From Escherichia coli (GTDB lineage Bacteria > Pseudomonadota > Gammaproteobacteria > Enterobacterales > Enterobacteriaceae), in NCBI RefSeq assembly GCF_016903815.1, contig NZ_CP069973.1: a DNA stretch of 64,000 nucleotides, one strand, 5' to 3'. The position numbers and the translations under genes were made by a program. Every line of letters starts with the position of its first letter. Within the stretch, counting starts at the first letter, position 1. Below the pieces are notes generated by a model, which did no database searches, was not told where the DNA came from, and saw nothing but the letters and a program-made list of their open reading frames with translations. Positions 33,763 to 64,000 of the stretch are shown piece after piece.

Positions 33763-35742
33763 TCAGTGAGATTTGACTGATTTTACCCCCAGCCAGTCAA
33801 TAATCCCCTGTGCCGCATGACGTCCTTCTGCCATTGCGGTAACCACCAGATCCGCACCACGCACGGCGTCACCACCAGCGAAGATTTTCGGATTGGTGGT
33901 CTGGTAACGGTACTGGCTTTCCACATCCGCGATGATGCGGCCCCATTTGTCTACCATTACACCGTGCGACTCCAGCCACGGCATCCCGTGCGGATTGAAG
34001 CCAAACGCCATAATCACCGCGTCGGCTGGCATGACAAATTCACTGCCTTCCACCGGTACTGGACGCCGACGCCCCTGGGCATCCGGCTCGCCAAGACGCG
34101 TACGCAGGAAACGAATCCCGCAAACGTGACCTTGTTCATTCAGCTCAAGCGCCACCGGCTGGACGTTAAATTCGAAGTTGGCCCCCTCTTCGCGGGCGTT
34201 CTTCACCTCTTTCTTCGAGCCTGGCATGTTAGCTTCATCACGACGATAAGCGCAGGTGACGTTACTCGCGCCGTGGCGCAGCGCAGTACGCACACAGTCC
34301 ATCGCGGTGTCGCCGCCGCCCAGTACCACGACGTTGAGTCCGGCGGTATTGATAAACGGCTCTTCCGGTAGCTCTTCGAGTCCCATCACCTGTTTAGTGT
34401 TGGCAATGAGGAACGGCAGCGCGTCATAAACGCCCGGCGCATCTTCATTGGGTAAACCCGCTTTCATGGAACGGTAAGTGCCTACGCCAACGAAGACCGC
34501 GTCGTATTGTTCCAAAAGCGAATCCAAAGAGACATCTTTACCCACTTCACAATTGAGTTCGAAGTGAATCCCCATCGCGCTGAAGATTTCCCGACGGCGT
34601 GCCAGCAGGGATTTATCCAGTTTGAAAGAAGGAATGCCGAAAGTGAGCAAGCCACCGATTTCTGGATGGCGATCGTACACCGTCACCTCTACGCCATTGC
34701 GGGTCAGAACATCCGCACAGGCCAGCCCTGCCGGACCCGCACCGATAATCGCCACCCGCTTGTCCACTTTGGTGACATGGCTTAAGTCAGGACGCCAACC
34801 TTTCGCCAACGCCTGATCTGAAATGTAGCGTTCAATGTTGCCGATAGTTACTGCGCCGTGCTCATCGCGAATAGTACAGGCACCTTCACACAAACGGTCT
34901 TGCGGACAAACGCGTCCGGTAATTTCCGGCAGGGTGTTGGTCTGGTGAGAAAGCTCGACGGCGGCGTCGATGTTTCCGGCTTTCACCAGTTCAATCCACT
35001 GCGGAATATGGTTATGCAGCGGGCAGGTCCATTCACAAACGCTGTGCTCGCCGCATTTAAGGCAGCGCGAGGCTTCCCGTTGTGCCTGATCGACACGGAA
35101 TGGCAGATAAATTTCATCAAAACCGGTTTTGCGCGCTTCAATCGCCAGTTTATCCGGCTCGCCACGCGCGGGCGTTGCCTGCATTTGCTCGACTTTACTC
35201 ATTACCGGCATTTCTTGTGCCGCGGTACTGGCATGCCACGGTTGATGTTCCTGACGTGCGGTGCGCAGGCGGCGGGATTTCGCCATGCCGGAGAGTGCGG
35301 CATCAGTGACCAGTTGCAGCGCGTCCGCCGGGCAATTCTCGACACAGGCAGGACCGTTTTCGCGCCCTGCACAAAGGTCGCATTTATGCGCCGTGGCTTT
35401 TACTTTGCCCGCCGCGACGGGTGTCAGGACGATTTGCATCGTACCAAATGGACAGGCCACCACGCAGGATTTACAGCCAATACACTTTTGCTGATTGACC
35501 TGAATGCTGTCATCAACGTGGCTGATTGCGCCATTAGGGCAACTACGGGCGCAGGGCGCATCTTCGCAATGGTGACAGGTCACTGCACTACGTTGCTGCT
35601 GATGTTTGATAACCGTAATTCGGGGATGAAAATGGTGTTGGCTCAGGACATGTTGCTCATCATTGTGAGCCATGACACAGGCGATTTCACAAGCATGACA
35701 ACCCAGACATTGCTGACTGTTGGCCATAATAAAACGATTCAT
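33763..35742 (-). CDS. aegA: Fe-S cluster-containing pyridine nucleotide-disulfide oxidoreductase AegA (659 aa; ferredoxin-like N-terminus plus GltD-like domain)
   Basis: ORF track 33763..35742; several CxxCxxCxxxCP clusters. Confidence 0.92.
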   Translation of the reverse strand: MNRFIMANSQQCLGCHACEIACVMAHNDEQHVLSQHHFHPRITVIKHQQQRSAVTCHHCEDAPCARSCPNGAISHVDDSIQVNQQKCIGCKSCVVACPFGTMQIVLTPVAAGKVKATAHKCDLCAGRENGPACVENCPADALQLVTDAALSGMAKSRRLRTARQEHQPWHASTAAQEMPVMSKVEQMQATPARGEPDKLAIEARKTGFDEIYLPFRVDQAQREASRCLKCGEHSVCEWTCPLHNHIPQWIELVKAGNIDAAVELSHQTNTLPEITGRVCPQDRLCEGACTIRDEHGAVTIGNIERYISDQALAKGWRPDLSHVTKVDKRVAIIGAGPAGLACADVLTRNGVEVTVYDRHPEIGGLLTFGIPSFKLDKSLLARRREIFSAMGIHFELNCEVGKDVSLDSLLEQYDAVFVGVGTYRSMKAGLPNEDAPGVYDALPFLIANTKQVMGLEELPEEPFINTAGLNVVVLGGGDTAMDCVRTALRHGASNVTCAYRRDEANMPGSKKEVKNAREEGANFEFNVQPVALELNEQGHVCGIRFLRTRLGEPDAQGRRRPVPVEGSEFVMPADAVIMAFGFNPHGMPWLESHGVMVDKWGRIIADVESQYRYQTTNPKIFAGGDAVRGADLVVTAMAEGRHAAQGIIDWLGVKSVKSH

Positions 35743-50666: not shown

Positions 50667-51136
50667 TGAATCCACTGAAAGCCGGTGATATCGCACCGAA
50701 ATTTAGCTTGCCGGATCAAGACGGAGAACAAGTTAATTTGACCGACTTCCAGGGACAGCGTGTTCTGGTTTATTTCTACCCGAAAGCCATGACCCCCGGC
50801 TGTACCGTACAGGCCTGCGGCTTACGCGATAACATGGATGAGTTGAAAAAAGCGGGCGTTGATGTGCTGGGTATCAGCACCGATAAACCCGAAAAACTCT
50901 CCCGTTTTGCGGAAAAAGAGCTGCTTAACTTTACGCTCCTGTCTGATGAGGACCACCAGGTGTGCGAACAATTCGGCGTCTGGGGTGAAAAGTCCTTCAT
51001 GGGCAAAACCTACGATGGTATTCATCGCATCAGCTTCCTGATTGACGCTGATGGCAAAATCGAACATGTCTTTGACGATTTCAAAACCAGCAATCACCAC
51101 GACGTTGTGCTGAACTGGCTGAAAGAACACGCCTGA
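50666..51136 (+). CDS. bcp: Thiol peroxidase (peroxiredoxin) Bcp (156 aa)
   Basis: ORF track 50666..51136; peroxidatic Cys in PGCT motif; ATG overlaps gcvR stop (TAATG). Confidence 0.93.
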   Translation: MNPLKAGDIAPKFSLPDQDGEQVNLTDFQGQRVLVYFYPKAMTPGCTVQACGLRDNMDELKKAGVDVLGISTDKPEKLSRFAEKELLNFTLLSDEDHQVCEQFGVWGEKSFMGKTYDGIHRISFLIDADGKIEHVFDDFKTSNHHDVVLNWLKEHA

Positions 51137-51330
51137 TTACTTTGCTCCATTCCGTGCTGGCTGCGCTTGCGGTCAGCACACCTCACTTCTCGTGATCAAG
51201 ATCACATTCTCGCTTTCCCCTGCGACACGGGTGTCGAATTCATTTTTTGCTGAACGTTAATGACCATCATTTTTGTACCGTTCAGAATACAGTTAATTCA
51301 TAACTTATTGAATACATTAAATTAATCAGA

Positions 51331-51348
51331 CTGGCATCCTTTATGCAA
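51331..51348 (+). promoter_or_regulatory. Candidate sigma54 (-24/-12) promoter of the hyf operon
   Basis: cTGGCATcctttaTGCAa with GG-N10-GC spacing, about 40 nt upstream of the hyfA ATG. Confidence 0.6.
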
Positions 51349-51388
51349 TATGAAATGCAATGTTTCATATCATTTTCAAGGAGCCGAC

Positions 51389-52006
51389 ATGAACCGCTTT
51401 GTGGTGGCCGAACCACTGTGGTGTACAGGATGTAATACCTGTCTCGCTGCCTGTTCGGACGTGCATAAAACGCAAGGTTTACAGCAACACCCGCGCCTGG
51501 CCCTGGCGAAGACGTCAACACTCACTGCCCCTGTCGTGTGTCATCACTGTGAGGAAGCCCCTTGCCTGCAGGTCTGCCCGGTCAATGCCATCTCCCAGAG
51601 GGATGATGCGATCCAACTCAACGAAAGCCTTTGTATTGGTTGCAAGCTTTGCGCCGTGGTCTGCCCATTTGGTGCAATCAGCGCTTCAGGAAGCCGTCCG
51701 GTGAATGCCCCGGCGCAATATGTTTTTCAGGCTGATGGCTCACTCAAAGACGGCGAAGAAAACGCGCCGACCCAACATGCTTTGCTGCGCTGGGAACCGG
51801 GTGTCCAGACCGTCGCGGTGAAATGCGACCTGTGTGATTTCTTGCCAGAAGGTCCGGCCTGCGTTCGCGCTTGCCCGAATCAGGCGTTACGGCTGATCAC
51901 CGACGATAGCCTGCAACGTCAGATGAAAGAAAAACAGCGCCTTGCCGCAAGCTGGTTTGCCAATGGCGGGGAGGATCCCCTTTCCCTCACTCAGGAGCAA
52001 CGCTAA
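51389..52006 (+). CDS. hyfA: Hydrogenase-4 component A, 4Fe-4S ferredoxin-type subunit HyfA (205 aa)
   Basis: ORF track 51350..52006; start trimmed to ATG 51389 (MNRFVVAEPLWCTGC...) with AAGGAG SD. Confidence 0.9.
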   Translation: MNRFVVAEPLWCTGCNTCLAACSDVHKTQGLQQHPRLALAKTSTLTAPVVCHHCEEAPCLQVCPVNAISQRDDAIQLNESLCIGCKLCAVVCPFGAISASGSRPVNAPAQYVFQADGSLKDGEENAPTQHALLRWEPGVQTVAVKCDLCDFLPEGPACVRACPNQALRLITDDSLQRQMKEKQRLAASWFANGGEDPLSLTQEQR

Positions 52007-54024
52007 TGGATGCCCTGCAATTATTAACCTGGTCGCTGATCCTCTATCTGTTTGCCAGTCTGGCTTCGCTGTTTTTACTCGGTCTGGACAGACTGGCTAT
52101 TAAGCTTTCCGGCATCACATCGCTGGTGGGTGGCGTGATTGGCATCATCAGCGGAATTACGCAATTACATGCAGGCGTAACTTTAGTCGCCCGTTTTGCC
52201 ACGCCTTTTAACTTTGCCGATTTAACCCTGCGAATGGATAGCCTCTCGGCATTTATGGTGCTGGTTATCTCCTTGCTGGTGGTGGTTTGTTCGCTCTATT
52301 CATTGACTTATATGCGCGAATACGAGGGCAAAGGCGCGGCGGCGATGGGCTTCTTTATGAATCTTTTCATCGCATCGATGGTTGCCCTGCTGGTGATGGA
52401 CAACGCTTTTTGGTTCATCGTGCTGTTTGAAATGATGTCGCTGTCTTCCTGGTTTCTGGTCATTGCCAGGCAGGATAAAACGTCAATCAACGCTGGCATG
52501 CTCTACTTTTTTATCGCCCACGCCGGATCGGTACTGATTATGATCGCCTTCTTGCTGATGGGGCGCGAAAGCGGCAGCCTCGATTTTGCCAGTTTCCGCA
52601 CGCTTTCACTTTCTCCGGGGCTGGCGTCGGCGGTGTTCCTGATGGCCTTCTTTGGTTTTGGCGCGAAAGCCGGGATGATGCCGTTGCACAGCTGGTTGCC
52701 ACGCGCTCACCCTGCCGCACCATCGCACGCTTCGGCGTTGATGTCTGGCGTAATGGTCAAAATCGGTATTTTCGGCATCCTGAAAGTAGCGATGGACCTG
52801 CTGGCGCAAACGGGTTTGCCGCTGTGGTGGGGCATTCTGGTGATGGCGATCGGCGCAATCTCCGCGCTCCTGGGCGTGCTGTATGCGCTGGCGGAACAGG
52901 ATATCAAACGGCTGCTGGCCTGGAGTACCGTCGAAAACGTCGGCATTATTTTGCTGGCGGTCGGTGTGGCGATGGTCGGTCTGTCACTGCACGACCCGCT
53001 GCTCACCGTTGTTGGACTGCTCGGCGCGCTGTTTCATCTGCTCAACCATGCGCTGTTCAAAGGGCTGCTGTTTCTCGGCGCGGGTGCGATTATTTCGCGT
53101 TTGCATACCCACGACATGGAAAAAATGGGGGCACTGGCAAAACGGATGCCGTGGACAGCCGCAGCATGCCTGATTGGTTGCCTCGCGATATCAGCCATTC
53201 CTCCGCTGAATGGTTTTATCAGCGAATGGTACACCTGGCAGTCGCTGTTCTCACTAAGTCGTGTGGAAGCCGTAGCGCTACAACTTGCGGGTCCTATTGC
53301 TATGGTGATGCTGGCAGTCACTGGTGGGCTGGCAGTAATGTGCTTCGTCAAAATGTACGGTATTACTTTCTGTGGAGCGCCGCGCAGTACACACGCTGAA
53401 GAGGCACAGGAAGTGCCAAATACGATGATCGTCGCCATGCTACTGCTCGCGGCACTCTGCGTATTCATTGCGCTTAGTGCCAGTTGGCTGGCACCGAAGA
53501 TAATGCACATTGCCCATGCGTTTACCAATACCCCTCCCGTCACTGTCGCCAGCGGAATAGCACTTGTACCCGGCACGTTTCATACACGGGTCACTCCCTC
53601 ATTACTGTTGCTGTTACTACTGGCGATGCCTTTGCTGCCTGGCCTTTACTGGCTATGGTGTCGTTCGCGCCGCGCAGCGTTTCGTCGCACAGGAGATGCC
53701 TGGGCATGCGGCTACGGCTGGGAAAATGCGATGGCCCCGTCAGGCAATGGCGTGATGCAGCCGCTGCGTGTGGTCTTTTGTGCGCTATTTCGTCTACGAC
53801 AACAGCTCGACCCTACGCTGAGGCTGAACAAAGGTCTTGCGCACGTCACCGCCAGGGCTCAGAGCACAGAACCCTTCTGGGATGAGCGGGTGATCCGCCC
53901 CATCGTGAGCGCCACCCAACGGCTGGCCAAAGAAATACAGCATCTGCAAAGCGGCGACTTTCGTCTCTATTGCCTGTATGTGGTCGCCGCACTGGTTGTG
54001 CTGCTAATCGCTATTGCCGTCTAA
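52006..54024 (+). CDS. hyfB: Hydrogenase-4 membrane subunit HyfB (672 aa, NuoL/MnhA-like antiporter-type)
   Basis: ORF track 52006..54024; ATG overlaps hyfA stop. Confidence 0.93.
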   Translation: MDALQLLTWSLILYLFASLASLFLLGLDRLAIKLSGITSLVGGVIGIISGITQLHAGVTLVARFATPFNFADLTLRMDSLSAFMVLVISLLVVVCSLYSLTYMREYEGKGAAAMGFFMNLFIASMVALLVMDNAFWFIVLFEMMSLSSWFLVIARQDKTSINAGMLYFFIAHAGSVLIMIAFLLMGRESGSLDFASFRTLSLSPGLASAVFLMAFFGFGAKAGMMPLHSWLPRAHPAAPSHASALMSGVMVKIGIFGILKVAMDLLAQTGLPLWWGILVMAIGAISALLGVLYALAEQDIKRLLAWSTVENVGIILLAVGVAMVGLSLHDPLLTVVGLLGALFHLLNHALFKGLLFLGAGAIISRLHTHDMEKMGALAKRMPWTAAACLIGCLAISAIPPLNGFISEWYTWQSLFSLSRVEAVALQLAGPIAMVMLAVTGGLAVMCFVKMYGITFCGAPRSTHAEEAQEVPNTMIVAMLLLAALCVFIALSASWLAPKIMHIAHAFTNTPPVTVASGIALVPGTFHTRVTPSLLLLLLLAMPLLPGLYWLWCRSRRAAFRRTGDAWACGYGWENAMAPSGNGVMQPLRVVFCALFRLRQQLDPTLRLNKGLAHVTARAQSTEPFWDERVIRPIVSATQRLAKEIQHLQSGDFRLYCLYVVAALVVLLIAIAV

Positions 54025-54034
54025 GGAAATCACC

Positions 54035-54982
54035 ATGAGACAAACTCTTTGCGACGGATATCTGATCATTTTTGCGTTAGCACAGGCCGTGATTCTGCTG
54101 GCGCTAACCCCGCTTTTTACGGGGATTTCCCGGCAGATACGCGCGCGTATGCACTCCCGTCGCGGACCGGGGATCTGGCAGGATTATCGCGATATCCACA
54201 AACTGTTTAAACGCCAGGAAGTTGCGCCGACATCTTCAGGTCTGATGTTCCGCATGATGCCGTGGGTATTAATCAGCAGCATGCTGGTGCTGGCGATGGC
54301 CCTACCACTATTTATTACTGTTTCCCCTTTTGCGGGCGGCGGCGATCTGATCACCCTTATCTATCTTCTTGCCCTGTTTCGTTTTTTCTTTGCTCTTTCC
54401 GGGCTGGATACCGGAAGCCCGTTTGCGGGAGTCGGTGCCAGTCGCGAGTTGACGCTCGGCATTCTGGTCGAACCCATGCTCATTCTCTCACTGCTGGTAT
54501 TGGCGCTGATAGCGGATTCCACGCATATCGAGATGATCAGCAAGACGCTGGCGACGGGCTGGAACTCGCCGCTAACCACCGTACTGGCGTTACTGGCCTG
54601 TGGTTTTGCCTGCTTCATTGAGATGGGAAAAATTCCCTTTGATGTTGCTGAAGCAGAACAGGAATTACAGGAAGGCCCGCTGACCGAATATTCCGGTGCC
54701 GGGCTGGCGCTGGCGAAGTTGGGGCTGGGGCTGAAACAGATCGTGATGGCAGCACTGTTTGTGGCCCTGTTTCTGCCCTTTGGGCGCGCGCAAGAACTTT
54801 CTCTCGCCTGCCTGCTGACTTCACTTGTCGTTACGCTGCTCAAGGTTTTGCTGATTTTTGTACTGGCCTCAATCGCAGAAAACACGCTGGCACGCGGGCG
54901 TTTTTTACTCACTCACCATGTGACCTGGCTTGGCTTCAGCCTTGCTGCGCTTGCATGGGTCTTCTGGTTAACCGGTCTGTAA
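54035..54982 (+). CDS. hyfC: Hydrogenase-4 membrane subunit HyfC (315 aa, NuoH-like)
   Basis: ORF track 54014..54982; start trimmed to ATG 54035 (MRQTLCDGYLII...). Confidence 0.9.
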   Translation: MRQTLCDGYLIIFALAQAVILLALTPLFTGISRQIRARMHSRRGPGIWQDYRDIHKLFKRQEVAPTSSGLMFRMMPWVLISSMLVLAMALPLFITVSPFAGGGDLITLIYLLALFRFFFALSGLDTGSPFAGVGASRELTLGILVEPMLILSLLVLALIADSTHIEMISKTLATGWNSPLTTVLALLACGFACFIEMGKIPFDVAEAEQELQEGPLTEYSGAGLALAKLGLGLKQIVMAALFVALFLPFGRAQELSLACLLTSLVVTLLKVLLIFVLASIAENTLARGRFLLTHHVTWLGFSLAALAWVFWLTGL

Positions 54983-54998
54983 GGAGCACTGACGGAAT

Positions 54999-56438
54999 AT
55001 GGAAAATCTTGCTCTGACGACGTTATTGCTGCCTTTTATCGGCGCACTGGTCGTTTCGTTTTCGCCACAACGTCGGGCCGCCGAATGGGGGGTTTTGTTC
55101 GCCGCGCTGACCACGCTGTGCATGTTGTCACTGATCTCCGCGTTTTATCAGGCCGATAAAGTTGCCGTCACGTTGACGTTGGTCAACGTGGGGGATGTGG
55201 CGTTGTTTGGCCTGGTCATTGATCGCGTGAGTACGCTGATTCTGTTTGTGGTGGTGTTCCTCGGTTTGCTGGTCACGATCTACTCCACGGGTTATCTGAC
55301 GGATAAAAATCGCGAACACCCGCATAACGGCACGAATCGTTATTACGCATTTTTGCTGCTGTTTATCGGCGCGATGGCGGGACTGGTACTCTCTTCGACG
55401 CTGCTCGGTCAGTTGTTGTTTTTTGAAATTACGGGCGGCTGCTCCTGGGCGTTGATCAGTTATTACCAGAGCGATAAAGCGCAGCGTTCGGCACTAAAAG
55501 CGTTGCTTATTACCCATATCGGTTCGTTGGGGTTGTATCTTGCCGCCGCCACGCTGTTTTTGCAGACCGGAACGTTTGCGCTTAGCGCGATGAGCGAGTT
55601 ACACGGCGACGCACGCTATCTGGTTTATGGTGGCATCCTGTTTGCCGCGTGGGGGAAATCGGCCCAGCTACCGATGCAAGCGTGGCTACCGGATGCAATG
55701 GAAGCGCCAACACCGATCAGCGCCTATCTCCACGCCGCATCGATGGTGAAAGTGGGCGTTTACATTTTTGCCCGTGCCATTATCGACGGCGGCAATATCC
55801 CGCATGTGATTGGCGGCGTTGGCATGGTTATGGCACTGGTCACCATTCTTTATGGCTTCCTGATGTATTTGCCACAGCAGGATATGAAGCGGTTGCTGGC
55901 CTGGTCGACCATCACTCAACTTGGCTGGATGTTTTTCGGCTTGTCGCTCTCCATCTTCGGCTCGCGGCTGGCGCTGGAGGGCAGCATCGCCTACATCGTC
56001 AACCACGCGTTCGCTAAAAGCCTGTTTTTCCTTGTAGCAGGTGCGCTGAGTTACAGCTGCGGCACGCGCTTGTTGCCGCGTCTGCGTGGCGTATTGCACA
56101 CCCTGCCGTTGCCAGGCGTGGGTTTCTGCGTGGCAGCGCTGGCGATTACCGGCGTACCGCCGTTCAACGGCTTCTTCAGTAAATTCCCGCTGTTTGCCGC
56201 CGGTTTTGCGTTGTCAGTGGAGTACTGGATCCTGCTGCCCGCCATGATTCTGCTGATGATTGAATCGGTCGCCAGTTTCGCCTGGTTTATTCGCTGGTTT
56301 GGTCGCGTCGTGCCTGGCAAACCGAGCGAGGCCGTCGCCGATGCCGCACCGCTGCCAGGATCAATGCGCCTGGTGTTGATTGTACTGATTGTGATGTCGC
56401 TGATTTCCAGCGTAATCGCCGCGACCTGGTTGCAGTAA
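54999..56438 (+). CDS. hyfD: Hydrogenase-4 membrane subunit HyfD (479 aa, antiporter-type)
   Basis: ORF track 54999..56438. Confidence 0.92.
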   Translation: MENLALTTLLLPFIGALVVSFSPQRRAAEWGVLFAALTTLCMLSLISAFYQADKVAVTLTLVNVGDVALFGLVIDRVSTLILFVVVFLGLLVTIYSTGYLTDKNREHPHNGTNRYYAFLLLFIGAMAGLVLSSTLLGQLLFFEITGGCSWALISYYQSDKAQRSALKALLITHIGSLGLYLAAATLFLQTGTFALSAMSELHGDARYLVYGGILFAAWGKSAQLPMQAWLPDAMEAPTPISAYLHAASMVKVGVYIFARAIIDGGNIPHVIGGVGMVMALVTILYGFLMYLPQQDMKRLLAWSTITQLGWMFFGLSLSIFGSRLALEGSIAYIVNHAFAKSLFFLVAGALSYSCGTRLLPRLRGVLHTLPLPGVGFCVAALAITGVPPFNGFFSKFPLFAAGFALSVEYWILLPAMILLMIESVASFAWFIRWFGRVVPGKPSEAVADAAPLPGSMRLVLIVLIVMSLISSVIAATWLQ

Positions 56439-56449
56439 GGAGATGATGA

Positions 56450-57100
56450 ATGACCGGTTCTATGATCGTAAATAATCTGGCGGGACTGATGATGCTGACA
56501 TCGCTGTTTGTGATTAGCGTCAAAAGCTATCGCCTGTCATGCGGATTTTACGCCTGCCAGTCGCTGGTGCTGGTGTCTATTTTCGCCACTCTCTCGTGCC
56601 TGTTCGCCGCAGAGCAACTGCTGATCTGGTCCGCCAGCGCCTTTATCACCAAAGTGCTGCTGGTACCGTTAATCATGACTTACGCTGCACGAAATATTCC
56701 CCAGAACATCCCGGAAAAAGCGTTATTCGGTCCGGCAATGATGACACTGCTCGCGGCGTTAATTGTCCTGCTTTGCGCATTTGTCGTTCAGCCCGTGAAG
56801 CTACCGATGGCTACCGGGCTGAAACCGGCGCTGGCGGTGGCGTTAGGTCATTTTCTGCTTGGCCTGCTGTGCATTGTCAGCCAGCGCAATATCCTGCGGC
56901 AAATTTTTGGTTACTGCCTGATGGAAAACGGCTCCCATCTGGTGCTGGCGCTTCTAGCCTGGCGTGCACCGGAACTGGTGGAAATTGGTATCGCTACCGA
57001 CGCCATCTTCGCCGTCATTGTGATGGTGTTACTGGCAAGAAAAATATGGCGTACCCACGGCACGCTGGACGTGAATAACTTGACCGCGCTGAAGGGATAA
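56450..57100 (+). CDS. hyfE: Hydrogenase-4 membrane subunit HyfE (216 aa)
   Basis: ORF track 56450..57100. Confidence 0.92.
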
Positions 57101-57104
57101 TGAG

Positions 57105-58685
57105 ATGAGTTATTCTGTGATGTTCGCTTTACTCCTGCTCACGCCGCTGCTTTTTTCGCTGCTCTGTTTTGCCTGTCGGAAACGGGGGCACTCTGCGACT
57201 CTCGCGGTGACAGTATTACATAGCTTAGGGATCACACTGCTACTGATTCTGGCACTGTGGGTGGTCCAAACTGCCGCTGATGCGGGAGAAATATTCGCTG
57301 CGGGACTGTGGCTTCATATTGATGGTCTGGGCGGTTTGTTCCTCGCCATTCTTGGTGTGATTGGCTTTCTCACCGGTGTTTACTCGATTGGCTACATGCG
57401 TCATGAAGTGGCACACGGCGAGCTTTCACCCGTTACGCTGTGCGATTACTACGGTTTCTTCCATCTGTTTTTGTTCACCATGCTGCTGGTTGTCACCAGC
57501 AATAACCTTATTGTGATGTGGGCGGCGATCGAAGCCACCACCTTAAGCTCGGCGTTTCTGGTAGGCATTTACGGTCAGCGTTCATCGCTGGAAGCTGCAT
57601 GGAAGTACATCATTATTTGTACTGTTGGTGTCGCTTTTGGTCTGTTCGGTACCGTGCTGGTATACGCCAACGCCGCCAGCGTTATGCCGCAGGCAGAAAT
57701 GGCGATATTCTGGAGCGAGGTTCTTAAGCAATCGTCCTTGCTTGACCCAACATTAATGCTGTTGGCCTTTGTGTTCGTGCTAATTGGCTTTGGCACTAAA
57801 ACCGGGCTATTCCCCATGCACGCCTGGCTGCCAGATGCTCACAGTGAAGCGCCGAGTCCGGTCAGCGCCCTGCTCTCCGCCGTATTGCTGAACTGCGCGC
57901 TGTTGGTGCTGATTCGCTATTACATCATTATTTGCCAGGCCATCGGCAGCGATTTCCCCAACCGGTTGTTGCTCATCTTCGGCATGTTGTCGGTTGCCGT
58001 GGCGGCATTTTTCATTCTGGTACAGCGGGACATTAAGCGTCTGCTGGCGTACTCCAGCGTGGAGAACATGGGACTGGTCGCGGTGGCGCTAGGCATTGGC
58101 GGGCCGCTGGGAATTTTTGCCGCGCTGCTGCACACCTTAAACCACAGTCTGGCAAAAACGCTGTTGTTCTGCGGTTCCGGCAATGTACTGCTCAAGTACG
58201 GCACGCGCGATCTCAACGTCGTCTGCGGAATGCTTAAAATCATGCCATTTACCGCCGTGTTGTTTGGCGGCGGTGCGCTGGCGCTGGCCGGGATGCCGCC
58301 CTTCAACATTTTTCTTAGCGAATTTATGACCGTTACCGCCGGACTGGCGCGTAATCATCTGCTGCTTATCGTCCTGCTGTTATTGCTGTTAACGCTGGTG
58401 CTGGCGGGCCTGGTACGGATGGCTGCGCGGGTGTTAATGGCGAAACCGCCGCAGGCCGTTAACCGGGGTGAACTTGGCTGGTTGACCACCTCGCCAATGG
58501 TGATTCTGCTGGTCATGATGCTGGCGATGGGAACGCATATTCCACAACCTGTCATCAGGATCCTGGCGGGCGCTTCCACTATAGTCCTCTCAGGGACGCA
58601 CGACCTGCCTGCACAACGTAGCACCTGGCATGATTTTTTGCCTTCAGGCACCGCATCTGTTTCGGAGAAACACAGTGAACGTTAA
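57105..58685 (+). CDS. hyfF: Hydrogenase-4 membrane subunit HyfF (526 aa, antiporter-type)
   Basis: ORF track 57105..58685. Confidence 0.92.
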
Positions 58686-60390
58686 TTCATCGTCAAATCG
58701 TGGCGAAGCGATTCTCGCCGCCCTGAAAACGCAGTTCCCCGGCGCGGTGCTGGATGAAGAGCGACAAACGCCTGAACAGGTCACCATTACGGTGAAAATC
58801 AATCTGCTGCCTGACGTTGTGCATTATCTTTATTATCAACATGATGGCTGGCTTCCAGTCCTGTTTGGCAACGACGAGCGGACACTTAACGGTCATTACG
58901 CGGTTTATTATGCCCTTTCTATGGAAGGGGCCGAAAAATGCTGGATCGTGGTGAAGGCACTGGTCGATGCCGACAGTCGGGAGTTTCCGTCAGTCACACC
59001 GCGCGTCCCTGCCGCGGTCTGGGGCGAGCGAGAAATTCGCGATATGTACGGGCTGATTCCGGTTGGCCTGCCGGATCAGCGTCGGCTGGTGTTGCCCGAT
59101 GACTGGCCGGAAGATATGCATCCGCTGCGCAAAGACGCGATGGATTATCGACTGCGCCCAGAACCGACGACTGATACCGAAACGTATCCGTTTATCAACG
59201 AGGGCAACAGCGATGCGCGGGTTATCCCTGTCGGCCCGCTGCATATCACCTCCGATGAACCAGGTCACTTCCGCTTGTTTGTGGATGGCGAGCAAATTGT
59301 CGATGCTGATTACCGCCTGTTTTATGTCCATCGCGGCATGGAGAAACTGGCAGAAACGCGGATGGGCTACAACGAAGTGACCTTCTTATCCGACCGCGTG
59401 TGTGGGATTTGCGGTTTTGCCCACAGTGTGGCCTATACCAACTCGGTTGAAAATGCACTGGGGATTGAGGTGCCGCAACGAGCGCATACTATTCGCTCGA
59501 TTCTGCTGGAAGTCGAACGGCTGCATAGTCATTTGCTCAACCTTGGCCTCTCCTGCCATTTTGTTGGATTTGATACCGGCTTTATGCAATTTTTCCGCGT
59601 GCGGGAAAAGTCGATGACGATGGCGGAATTGCTGACCGGGTCGCGTAAAACCTACGGTCTGAATCTGATTGGTGGTGTTCGCCGCGATATTCTCAAAGAG
59701 CAACGTCTGCAAACGCTGAAACTGGTGCGCGAGATGCGCGCCGACGTGTCGGAGCTGGTAGAGATGCTGCTTGCCACGCCGAATATGGAACAACGCACTC
59801 AGGGCATTGGCATTCTCGACCGACAAATCGCCCGTGATTATAGCCCTGTCGGGCCGCTGATCCGCGGCAGTGGTTTTGCCCGTGATTTGCGCTTTGATCA
59901 CCCCTACGCCGACTACGGCAATATTCCCAAAACGCTGTTTACCTTTACCGGCGGCGATGTCTTCTCCCGCGTGATGGTCCGTGTCAAAGAGACGTTTGAT
60001 TCGCTGGCAATGCTGGAATTTGCCCTCGACAACATGCCGGATACCCCACTGCTGACCGAAGGCTTTAGCTATAAACCTCACGCATTCGCGCTGGGCTTTG
60101 TTGAAGCGCCACGTGGTGAAGACGTGCACTGGAGCATGCTCGGTGATAACCAAAAATTGTTCCGCTGGCGCTGTCGTGCCGCCACCTACGCCAACTGGCC
60201 AGTGCTGCGTTACATGCTGCGCGGCAATACCGTTTCTGACGCACCGCTGATTATCGGTAGCCTTGATCCCTGCTACTCCTGTACCGACCGTGTGACGCTG
60301 GTTGATGTGCGCAAGCGCCAGTCAAAAACCGTGCCGTATAAAGAGATCGAACGCTACGGCATTGATCGTAACCGTTCGCCGCTGAAGTAA
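58675..60390 (+). CDS. hyfG: Hydrogenase-4 [NiFe] large catalytic subunit HyfG; start assigned to GTG 58675 (start uncertain)
   Basis: ORF track 58630..60390; GTG at 58675 preceded by GGAGA SD gives (M)[13 protein letters not shown]...; C-terminal DPCYSCTDR metal-binding motif; overlaps hyfF by 11 nt. Confidence 0.85.
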
Positions 60391-60399
60391 GGACAGAAG

Positions 60400-60945
60400 A
60401 TGCTGAAGTTACTGAAAACTATTATGCGCGCCGGAACCGCGACGGTGAAATATCCCTTCGCGCCACTGGAGGTCAGCCCAGGCTTTCGCGGGAAACCGGA
60501 CCTGATGCCCAGCCAATGTATTGCCTGCGGTGCCTGCGCTTGTGCTTGTCCGGCAAATGCGCTGACTATCCAGACCGACGACCAGCAAAATACGCGCACC
60601 TGGCAGCTCTATCTGGGGCGTTGTATTTACTGCGGACGTTGTGAAGAAGTGTGCCCGACCAGAGCCATTCAGCTTACCAATAACTTTGAACTGACCGTCA
60701 CCAATAAAGCCGATCTCTATACCCGCGCGACGTTCCATCTACAACGTTGCAGCCGTTGCGAACGCCCGTTTGCCCCGCAAAAAACCGTCGCACTGGCTGC
60801 TGAATTGTTGGCACAGCAACAAAATGCGCCACAAAACCGCGAAATGTTATGGGCGCAAGCGAGCGTCTGCCCGGAGTGCAAACAACGCGCGACGCTGATC
60901 AACGACGACACAGATGAACCGCTGGTGGCTAAGGAGCAGCTATGA
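60400..60945 (+). CDS. hyfH: Hydrogenase-4 ferredoxin-type subunit HyfH (181 aa)
   Basis: ORF track 60400..60945; two CxxCxxCxxxCP motifs. Confidence 0.92.
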
Positions 60946-61700
60946 GTCCAGTGCTTACGCAACATGTCAGCCAGCCCATAACGCTGGACGAGCAAACGCA
61001 AAAGATAAAGCAGCATTTGCTACAGGATATCCGTCGCTCGGCTTACGTTTATCGCGTCGATTGCGGCGGCTGCAACGCCTGCGAAATCGAAATTTTTGCC
61101 GCCATCACACCCGTATTCGACGCAGAACGTTTTGGCATTAAGGTTGTTTCATCACCACGTCACGCCGATATTTTGTTATTTACTGGCGCAGTCACCCGAG
61201 CGATGCGTATGCCTGCACTTCGGGCATATGAGTCTGCCCCCGATCATAAAATCTGTGTTTCCTACGGCGCGTGTGGTGTCGGCGGCGGTATTTTCCACGA
61301 TCTCTACAGCGTCTGGGGCGGCAGCGACACCATTGTCCCCATTGATGTTTGGATCCCCGGCTGCCCGCCAACACCGGCCGCCACCATTCACGGTTTCGCC
61401 GTGGCGCTCGGTTTGCTGCAACAGAAGATTCACGCGGTGGATTATCGCGATCCCACCGGGGTGACCATGCAACCGCTGTGGCCGCAGATCCCGCCATCAC
61501 AGCGTATCGCCGTTGAGCGAGAAGCGCGGCGGCTGGCGGGCTATCGTCAGGGGCGAGAAATTTGCGATCGGCTCCTGCGCCATTTAAGCGACGATCCTAC
61601 AGGAAATCGGGTTAACACCTGGTTGCGCGAAGCTGACGATCCGCGTCTCAATAGTATCGTTCAGCAACTCTTTCGCATTCTCCGGGGGTTACATGGCTGA
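60942..61700 (+). CDS. hyfI: Hydrogenase-4 [NiFe] small subunit HyfI (252 aa, NuoB-like)
   Basis: ORF track 60942..61700. Confidence 0.92.
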
Positions 61701-62106
61701 GGAGTGCAGGGAAATTGTTTTCTGGACGCTGCGAAAAAAGTTTGTCGCCAGTAGCGACGAGATGCCGGAACACAGCTCTCAGGTAATGTATTACTCGCTG
61801 GCTATCGGTCATCACGTTGGCGTGATTGATTGCCTGAGTGTCGCCTTCCGCTGCCCACTGACGGAATACGAAGATTGGCTTGCACAGGTCGAAGAGGAGC
61901 AAGCCCGACGTAAGATGCTGGGGGTGATGACCTTTGGTGAGATTGTTATTGACGCCAGCCACACCGCCCTGTTGACCCGGGCATTCGCGCCACTGGCAGA
62001 TGACGCGATGTCGGCGTGGCAGGCGCGTAGCATTCAATTCATTCATCTGTTGGATGAAATTGTGCAGGAACCGGCCATCTATCTGATGGCCAGAAAAATT
62101 GCGTGA
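61693..62106 (+). CDS. hyfJ: Hydrogenase-4 component HyfJ (137 aa, HycH-like maturation factor)
   Basis: ORF track 61693..62106. Confidence 0.9.
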
Positions 62107-62135: not shown

Positions 62136-64000
62136 ATGGCTATGTCAGACGAGGCGATGTTTGCCCCGCCGCAAGGAATAACAATTGAAGCGGTAAACGG
62201 AATGCTCGCGGAGCGGTTAGCGCAGAAACACGGCAAGGCGTCTTTATTACGCGCCTTCATCCCGCTGCCGCCGCCGTTCAGCCCGGTACAACTTATTGAA
62301 CTGCATGTTCTCAAAAGCAACTTCTATTACCGCTACCATGATGATGGCAGCGATGTGACGGCAACAACAGAGTATCAGAGTGAGATGGTCGATTATTCGC
62401 GCCACGCCGTCCTTCTCGGCAGTAGTGGAATGGCGGAGCTACGCTTTATTCGCACCCACGGCAGTCGTTTTACTCCCCAGGATTGCACACTGTTTAACTG
62501 GCTGGCGCGGATAATCACCCCGGTTCTGCAATCATGGCTCAATGATGAAGAACAGCAGGTGGCGCTGCGTTTGCTGGAGAAAGATCGCGATCATCATCGG
62601 GTACTGGTGGATATCACTAATGCAGTGTTGTCACATCTTGATCTCGACGATCTGATCGCTGACGTCGCTCGTGAGATCCATCATTTTTTCGGTCTGGCTT
62701 CAGTCAGTATGGTACTGGGCGATCATCGAAAGAACGAGAAGTTCAGCCTGTGGTGCAGCGATCTTTCTGCCTCACATTGTGCGTGTCTGCCACGCTGTAT
62801 GCCTGGCGAAAGTGTATTGCTGACACAAACGCTACAAACCCGACAACCGACCTTGACGCACCGTGCAGACGATCTGTTTCTCTGGCAACGCGACCCGTTA
62901 TTACACTTACTTGCATCTAACGGCTGCGAATCTGCGCTCCTTATACCGCTCACCTTTGGCAACCATACACCGGGCGCATTGTTGCTGGCGCATACCTCTT
63001 CCACTCTCTTTAGTGAGGAAAACTGCCAGCTACTACAACATATTGCCGATCGCATCGCTATTGCCGTTGGCAATGCCGATGCCTGGCGCAGCATGACCGA
63101 TTTGCAGGAAAGCTTGCAGCAAGAAAACCACCAGCTTAGCGAGCAGCTCCTTTCGAATCTGGGCGTCGGTGACATTATCTATCAAAGCCAGGCAATGGAA
63201 GATTTGCTCCAGCAGGTAGATATTGTGGCGAAGAGCGACAGTACGGTGTTGATTTGTGGTGAAACCGGAACCGGCAAAGAGGTGATCGCCAGAGCGATCC
63301 ATCAACTTAGCCCACGACGCGACAAGCCACTGGTCAAAATCAACTGCGCTGCCATCCCCGCCAGTCTTCTGGAAAGTGAGTTATTCGGTCATGACAAAGG
63401 GGCATTTACTGGTGCGATTAATACCCATCGTGGTCGTTTTGAAATTGCCGATGGCGGCACGTTGTTTCTCGATGAAATTGGCGATCTGCCGTTAGAACTT
63501 CAGCCTAAACTGCTGCGCGTATTGCAGGAACGGGAGATTGAGCGTCTCGGCGGGAGTAGAACGATCCCGGTAAATGTCAGAGTCATTGCCGCCACCAACC
63601 GTGATTTGTGGCAAATGGTTGAAGATCGCCAGTTTCGCAGCGATCTCTTTTATCGCCTGAATGTCTTCCCACTGGAACTGCCGCCACTGCGCGACCGTCC
63701 GGAAGATATCCCTCTTTTAGCAAAGCATTTCACGCAAAAAATGGCGCGCCATATGAATCGCGCAATTGACGCCATCCCGACCGAGGCGCTACGCCAGTTG
63801 ATGTCGTGGGACTGGCCGGGCAACGTGCGCGAGCTGGAAAACGTGATTGAGCGAGCGGTACTACTGACTCGCGGTAACAGTCTGAATTTACATCTTAATG
63901 TCCGACAAAGCCGTTTACTGCCGACGCTAAATGAAGATTCAGCGCTTCGCAGTTCAATGGCGCAGTTGCTGCACCCGACGACGCCAGAGAATGACGAAGA
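62136..64000 (+). CDS. hyfR: Sigma54-dependent transcriptional activator HyfR (FhlA-like), 3'-truncated by the window end
   Basis: ATG at 62136 with TAAGGA SD; frame open to 64000; translation has GAF-like N-terminus and AAA+ region with GETGTGKE and GAFTGA motifs; not in ORF track because no stop in window. Confidence 0.88.

Follow-up and report, generated by a model that had tools for sequence, protein, structure and literature searches.

Re-assignment of the repeats in the bcp-hyfA intergenic region of Escherichia coli to elements of the characterised hyf (hydrogenase-4) control region

Genes and features of the bcp-hyfA intergenic region

The window, i.e. the whole stretch of 64,000 nucleotides of Escherichia coli DNA that was analysed, was found to contain the 252-nt bcp-hyfA intergenic region at positions 51137-51388, with the bcp stop at 51136 and the hyfA ATG at 51389. 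A 321-nt query (window 51100-51420) was found to have matches in 5,424 of the 5,426 complete E. coli genomes, with 100% identity in a single one, and the matching genomes were annotated with bcp and hyfA on either side of the junction. The intergenic region of K-12 MG1655 was 98% identical to that of the window, and all the elements were identical except for the base before TGGCA. The comparison within the genus covered six E. coli strains (97-99% identity, at which invariance carries little information); their SNPs were confined to spacer sequence and to the hairpin of bcp, outside the control elements. The region is the already characterised control region of the hyf (hydrogenase-4) operon, hyfABCDEFGHIJR-focB. 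The control of hyf by sigma-54, FhlA, HyfR and CRP has already been reported for the hyfA promoter (EcoCyc entry hyfAp; Self et al., 2004; Skibinski et al., 2002). The window contains the same locus as this published promoter, without any difference in kind, and the assignment of the individual repeats presented here is an independent re-derivation.

The following features were assigned, ordered by their position in the window:

51191-51206, no strand: CRP-cAMP site CGTGATCAAGATCACA, centre about -160.5 from the transcription start
51223-51236, no strand: candidate FhlA/HyfR-type activator site (UAS) CGACA-CGGG-TGTCG, centre about -129.5, beginning 109 nt upstream of TGGCA
51250-51285, no strand: inverted repeat ctgaacg-N22-cgttcag, an Escherichia-specific dyad around block 3
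51261-51276, plus strand: invariant 16-mer TGACCATCAYTTTTGT ('block 3'), centre about -90.5
51301-51313, minus strand: IHF-like site ATTCAATAAGTTA, 12 of 13 positions matching WATCAA-N4-TTR, centre about -52
51332-51347, plus strand: sigma-54 promoter, -24 TGGCAT / -12 TGCA, from ChIP-seq, gSELEX and conservation
51348-51370, no strand: dyad ATATGAAA-N7-TTTCATAT, straddling +1
51358-51359, plus strand: transcription start region (+1), at the start predicted by Bonocora, where a conserved AAYGTTT begins
51378-51383, plus strand: Shine-Dalgarno AAGGAG of hyfA, 5 nt before the ATG at 51389
51389-52006, plus strand: hyfA coding sequence, annotated as hyfA in K-12 and other genomes
62136-64000, plus strand: hyfR (sigma-54 activator), residues 1-621 of 670, running off the end of the window

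The Shine-Dalgarno sequence of hyfA (CAAGGAGCC) was kept in all the aligned genera. The hyfR gene was present from 62136 to the end of the window, as claimed in the earlier note, and was found to be intact with 99.4% identity to K-12 HyfR (tblastn) as far as residue 621 of 670. An in-frame ATG was also found at 51350, which would lengthen the hyfA open reading frame by 13 codons (window 51350-51388); it lies upstream of the transcription start and therefore cannot be the start codon of hyfA.

All the sequences and coordinates given in the earlier note for four inverted repeats and for a -24/-12 element were found to be correct. The intergenic region contained 9 inverted repeats with 6-nt arms and loops of up to 30 nt against 1.99 expected from dinucleotide-preserving shuffles (P=0.007), followed by 3 dyads with 7-nt arms (0.52 expected, P=0.043) and 1 dyad with 8-nt arms (0.11 expected, P=0.077). 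Dyad symmetry is over-represented in the intergenic region taken as one, and the single repeats are each marginal.

Sigma-54 promoter and transcription start of hyfA

In TGGCATCCTTTATGCA, the GG nucleotides were found at 51333-51334 followed by the GC nucleotides at 51345-51346, giving the 12-nt GG-to-GC spacing of TGGCAC-N5-TTGCW. The TGGCA lies 57 nt upstream of the hyfA ATG and the motif ends about 41 nt upstream of it, which makes the distance of about 40 nt given in the earlier note a fair one. The pattern alone was not significant, as 3 occurrences of TGGCA-N7-TGCW were counted in the window where 2.24 were expected. With an RpoN matrix built from 186 sigma-54 promoters (Table 2, PMC7658346), the hyfA site scored 12.1 bits and came no higher than 7th in the window. 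It was the sole match within the 420 nt preceding hyfA, where the next best scored 0.9 bits.

The element was found to coincide with the K-12 sigma-54 ChIP-seq peak OS23 with the motif ATGGCATCCTTTATGCA, and the promoter is marked as having experimental confirmation in EcoCyc (PMC4591121). The bcp>hyfA spacer gave the highest or near-highest peak in genomic SELEX with the RpoN holoenzyme, at 92-100% of the maximum (PMC8743547). Forty-three hyfA loci from other genera were scanned, and 32 of the 43 contained a -24/-12 element of 10-18 bits upstream of hyfA; in 30 of these 32, the distance to the ATG was 54-99 nt. The motif counts given below refer to 33 loci, namely the 32 sigma-54-bearing relatives and the window. 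On the ChIP-seq peak, the SELEX peak and this conservation, TGGCAT-N6-TGCA is a real sigma-54 promoter of hyfA, as had been proposed from the sequence, and it is an already known one.

Primer extension reportedly puts the start of hyfA at 30 nt. The start predicted by Bonocora et al. lies 31 nt upstream of hyfA (PMC4591121), and the AAYGTTT nucleotides conserved among the aligned genera begin at this +1 region. The fourth repeat, atgaaa-N7-tttcat (51350-51368), was found to extend to the perfect 8-nt dyad ATATGAAA-N7-TTTCATAT. Its placement in the leader by the earlier note does not hold, since the left arm is flanked by the -12 box and by the transcription start at about 51358-51359. The dyad is confined to Escherichia. 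The left arm is upstream of +1 and untranscribed, and the dyad therefore cannot form an RNA hairpin. The fold of the dyad (-6.0 kcal/mol, z -1.1) was no more stable than those of shuffles, the hyfA 5'UTR from +1 folded at only -1.4 kcal/mol, and no Rfam match was found for 51348-51370 at E<=1. A structured RNA leader was rejected on the untranscribed left arm, the z of -1.1 and the lack of an Rfam match.

Sites within the hyf genes were found to outscore the hyfA promoter on the sigma-54 matrix, with 13.0-14.5 against 12.1 bits. The higher-scoring sites were located at 55820-55835, 62560-62575 and 63958-63973 on the plus strand and at 51483-51498 on the minus strand. They could be intragenic sigma-54 sites of the kind described by Bonocora et al., or chance matches. 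A natural change of TGGCA to TGACA was found in strain EA2 (L056, position 235, corresponding to window 51334); with this change the -24 element loses its invariant GG, and the hyf promoter of this strain should therefore be inactive.

CRP site

The first repeat, gtgatc-aa-gatcac at 51192-51205, was found within the CRP 16-mer CGTGATCAAGATCACA, in which 9 of the 10 core positions match TGTGA-N6-TCACA (one mismatch). In ETEC H10407, the identical 16-mer stands in the CRP ChIP-seq list as a site for hyfA (PMC4287617), and genomic SELEX with CRP recovered hyfA as one of the known CRP targets (PMC3105977). The network tables also place hyfA under CRP. In Citrobacter and Kosakonia, where the bcp-hyfA synteny is kept, the half-sites were found to persist while the six central bases varied (TGTGATCGCAATCACA, TGTGACTAATATCACA and TTTGACCGCGATCACA); conserved half-sites with a free spacer are the signature of CRP. 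The ChIP-seq, the SELEX and the half-site conservation do not bear out the reading of this repeat as an enhancer-binding-protein site, and gtgatc-aa-gatcac is a CRP site. The distance between the centres of the CRP site and of the UAS was exactly 31 bp in all three genera with a CRP site, and the intervening sequence had diverged.

Elsewhere in the window, TGTGAGCCATGACACA (35664-35679) was found to be one mismatch from the CRP core. It is the same 16-mer as the CRP ChIP-seq site for (aegA)/narQ in ETEC (PMC4287617).

FhlA/HyfR-type activator site

The second repeat, cgacac-gg-gtgtcg, was found to contain a pair of YGWCR half-sites with their GWC cores 9 bp apart. It lies 109 nt upstream of TGGCA, which is within the range of about 65-140 nt from the -24 element, and the 64-kb window contained no other match to CGWCA-N4-TGWCG. 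Of the 33 hyfA loci, window included, 29 contained the wider form CGWCA-N4-TGNCG between 40 and 170 nt upstream of TGGCA, against 0.04 expected from shuffles and none of 33 coding controls; the loci are phylogenetically related, and the 29 of 33 therefore overstates their independence. In four genera (Escherichia, Citrobacter, Kosakonia and Atlantibacter), the motif was found to start at -107 to -109 relative to TGGCA, and it was invariant in the alignments A2 and A3. The same CGWCA-N4-TGWCG form was carried by the FhlA-controlled fdhF (CGTCAAAACTGACG) and hydN (CGTCACTAGTGTCG) of E. coli, followed by related dyad forms at hyp (TGTCATTTTCGACA) and hyc (CGACATCATCGACA) of K-12.

The spacer of the hyf dyad was found to contain GGG in place of A/T-rich nucleotides. 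In 14 distinct related sites (from other genera and from fdhF and hydN of E. coli), the spacers were 88% A/T and G never occurred at positions 7-8. The published FhlA matrix scored the dyad at only about 5 bits, compared with 10.5 bits for the CRP dyad. With a UAS matrix trained on the other genera, the site in the window ranked about 20th on the full matrix, because of the GGG spacer, and 1st of about 128,000 positions on the half-sites only; the half-site matrix is close to the regular expression that selected the training sites, and the 1st rank is therefore not independent evidence.

HyfR and FhlA were found to be 51% identical overall, and both contained GAF, Sigma54_activat and HTH_8 domains. 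Their C-terminal helix-turn-helix regions were nearly the same, with an identical recognition helix KRTTLLSRM (...RLG-x-KRTTLLSRM-x-RLGI), and from this identity one site common to HyfR and FhlA is to be expected. HyfR is said to have bound hyf promoter DNA. The dyad cgacac-gg-gtgtcg is assigned, from its sequence, as a UAS of the FhlA/HyfR type, and the identical recognition helices point to FhlA or HyfR as the protein that would occupy it. Of the three upstream repeats that had been put forward as sites for an enhancer-binding protein, this one retains that reading as an FhlA/HyfR-type motif, while gtgatc-aa-gatcac went to CRP and ctgaacg-N22-cgttcag was not conserved.

IHF-like site

An IHF-like site, absent from the earlier note, was found at 51301-51313 between the UAS and the promoter. 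Its reverse complement, YAA-N4-TTGAW, was present at -30/-31 or -41/-42 from TGGCA in 17 of the 33 loci against 0.28 in shuffles, and the site was invariant in the six E. coli strains. A position between enhancer and promoter is the usual one for an IHF bend at sigma-54 promoters. From its match and its position, 51301-51313 is a probable IHF bending site.

Third repeat and invariant 16-mer

The long repeat ctgaacg-N22-cgttcag, which the earlier note had counted among the possible enhancer sites, was not retained as such. The right arm cgttcag was absent from every other aligned genus, Citrobacter and Kosakonia included, and the left arm was kept outside Escherichia only in C. amalonaticus; the 16-mer between the arms was conserved instead. 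This 16-mer (TGACCATCAYTTTTGT) was found to be invariant across Escherichia, Citrobacter and Kosakonia and contained no SNP in the six E. coli strains. When the FNR, Fur, ArcA, NarL and IHF consensus sequences were compared with the intergenic region, none was found to fit the 16-mer convincingly; its FNR-like match lacked the critical G, and its Fur match reached 14 of 19 positions in E. coli only. The 16-mer resembles sequences beside the FhlA sites of hydN (ATGACATCGTTTTT), hyc (CGACATCAT) and hyp (TGTCATTTTTGA), and in Atlantibacter CGACATC was found at the offset of the 16-mer from the UAS. It may tentatively be read as an auxiliary, second and weaker activator contact, a possibility that we rate below even.

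Directly after the 16-mer, two Citrobacter strains were found to contain the perfect dyad TTTTGTT-N10-AACAAAA (L003 2386-2409, and the equivalent position of L004). E. coli contained TGTA-N10-TACA at this place (window 51274-51291), with different outer bases and the N10 dyad symmetry kept. This dyad could be due to chance, or could be a second half-site for the binder of the 16-mer.

Alternative explanations

That hyf is driven by a sigma-70 promoter and that the TGGCAT-TGCA match is coincidental would agree with the lack of enrichment of the -24/-12 pattern in the window and with the modest matrix rank. This is hardly credible against the ChIP-seq, the SELEX and the EcoCyc-confirmed status of the sigma-54 element, which is moreover kept across orders, and no sigma-70-like promoter was found in 51050-51450. 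An FhlA/HyfR or FNR site in place of the CRP site at 51191-51206 is also distinctly unlikely, although each has points in its favour. The palindrome was the highest-scoring intergenic match with the published FhlA matrix, which gave it 10.46 bits and the 24th place among about 128,000; it differs from the FNR consensus TTGAT-N4-ATCAA at two positions, the network tables place hyfA under FNR, and an FNR site has been predicted at hyfA by Myers et al. (PMC3688515). That predicted site, however, gave no peak for FNR by ChIP-seq in that study (PMC3688515), and the exact 16-mer stands in the CRP ChIP-seq list, with hyfA recovered by SELEX. The relatives keep TGTGA/TCACA and vary the six central bases, where the FhlA matrix needs RAWRAT, and this matrix is weakly specific, coding DNA reaching 13.6 bits. 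The genera with a UAS and without a CRP-like site still carry the sigma-54 promoter. The pick of the palindrome by the FhlA matrix was rejected as cross-talk between motifs of the TGA...TCA type because of the CRP ChIP-seq, the SELEX and the conservation pattern, and the site is retained as a CRP site.

The second palindrome together with the T-run that follows it (51223-51249) might be taken for the intrinsic terminator of bcp and not for an activator site, as bcp precedes it on the same strand and a terminator scan flagged CGACACGGGTGTCG followed by AATTCATTTT. The hairpin, however, folds at only -4.9 kcal/mol with a z of +0.10 against shuffles, the half-sites of Citrobacter and Kosakonia mispair (CGACA/TGCCG) with the T-run lost, and the motif is also found upstream of hyfA in genera without bcp synteny. 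A stronger hairpin (-20.2 kcal/mol, z -4.4) is already present 3' of bcp at 51154-51179, and the terminator is very improbable beside the reading as an FhlA/HyfR-type UAS. For the long dyad at 51250-51285, a function of its own in Escherichia, e.g. as the site of a dimeric or tetrameric regulator or of HyfR, was considered. Its 7-nt arms are perfect and extendable to 24 nt at 75% complementarity, the dyad is invariant in the six E. coli strains, its distance is enhancer-like and the invariant 16-mer sits inside it. Against this stand the restriction of the arms described above, the expectation of about 0.5 such 7-nt dyads by chance in an AT-rich region, and the little information that invariance within the species carries at 97-99% identity. 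Such a function is thus unlikely, and the enclosed 16-mer is preferred as the conserved element.

Proposed mechanism

The sigma-54 binding, the CRP binding, the conservation of the motifs and their spacings come from published experiments or from the present analysis. In the mechanism proposed, the sigma-54 RNA polymerase binds the -24/-12 element (51332-51347) as a closed complex, with a start at about 51358-51359, and the opening of this complex needs an enhancer-binding protein of the AAA+ type. The presumed occupant of CGACA-N4-TGTCG (51223-51236), about 130 bp upstream of the start, would be either FhlA together with formate or HyfR, and an IHF-type bend near -52 (51301-51313), if bound by IHF, would bring the activator to the polymerase by looping. 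The CRP-cAMP site at 51191-51206 lies three helical turns, exactly 31 bp, further upstream than the activator site; CRP-cAMP may add catabolite control and would act probably by DNA bending or by stabilisation of the activator. The 16-mer (51261-51276), between the activator site and the IHF site, may serve as a second, weaker contact of the activator. A sigma-54 promoter combined with an FhlA/HyfR UAS, an IHF-type bend, a CRP site and the 16-mer very probably explains the region.

Comparison with related sigma-54 promoters

The promoters of the formate regulon (hycA, hypA, fdhF and hydN) share with hyf the -24/-12 promoter, a dyad of the YGWCR type that lies upstream of TGGCA at about 75-110 nt, a spacer that is AT-rich and IHF-like, and the recognition helix of the activator. 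They differ from hyf in the A/T-rich spacers of their sites, in contrast to GGG at hyf, and hyc and hyp contain clusters of sites whereas hyf contains one clear dyad. In addition, hyf contains an extra CRP site 31 bp upstream of the UAS, and its operon, unlike the formate-regulon promoters compared, encodes its own activator HyfR.

A CRP site upstream of a sigma-54 promoter is a feature that hyf shares with the glnAp2/dctA class; at hyf, in contrast to this class, the CRP site lies in a fixed 31-bp phase with the activator site. At other CRP-modulated sigma-54 promoters, e.g. glnAp2 and dctA, CRP is mainly inhibitory. For optimal HyfR-dependent expression of hyf, CRP-cAMP is reportedly needed.

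It appears doubtful, though conceivable, that the 16-mer, the strict 31-bp phasing of the CRP site to the UAS and the GGG spacer of the UAS form an undescribed regulatory layer specific to hyf. If they did, the 16-mer would be the determinant that lets HyfR, or another factor, act on hyf, CRP would cooperate directly and in a phase-dependent manner with the sigma-54 activator, and the GC-rich spacer would weaken the binding of FhlA and so explain the near-silent hyf of E. coli. The 16-mer, the CRP-to-UAS phasing and the odd UAS spacer are leads on the poor expression of hydrogenase-4; they are modest refinements and make no new kind of system. The main use of the present assignment is the correct annotation of a textbook locus, the repeats of which needed re-assigning. 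For the design of promoter mutations, the CRP site (51191-51206), the activator site (51223-51236) and the probable IHF site (51301-51313) are the positions indicated; neither the long dyad, conspicuous as it is, nor the 'leader' palindrome belongs to the conserved elements.

Hairpin downstream of bcp and variation of the junction

The hairpin GTGCTGGCTGC-GCTT-GCGGTCAGCAC was found at 51154-51179, 18 nt past the bcp stop, with no T-tract after it. K-12 differed at two positions of the stem with the pairing kept (G-U vs G-C), and Citrobacter contained a different GC hairpin followed by a T-run at the same place. This hairpin is probably a terminator of bcp or a stabiliser of its 3' end.

The strain analysed was found to contain 48 nt more than K-12 somewhere between the hyfA start and hyfJ (window 51389-61736), and hyfR started at 62136 instead of the 62088 expected from the K-12 spacing. 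About 1,100 of the 5,424 E. coli genomes, e.g. an ST131 strain, matched no more of the query than its first 86-91 nt (the bcp end). In the absence of the hyf side of the junction from these genomes, the hyf promoter and operon are missing from a large fraction of the species.
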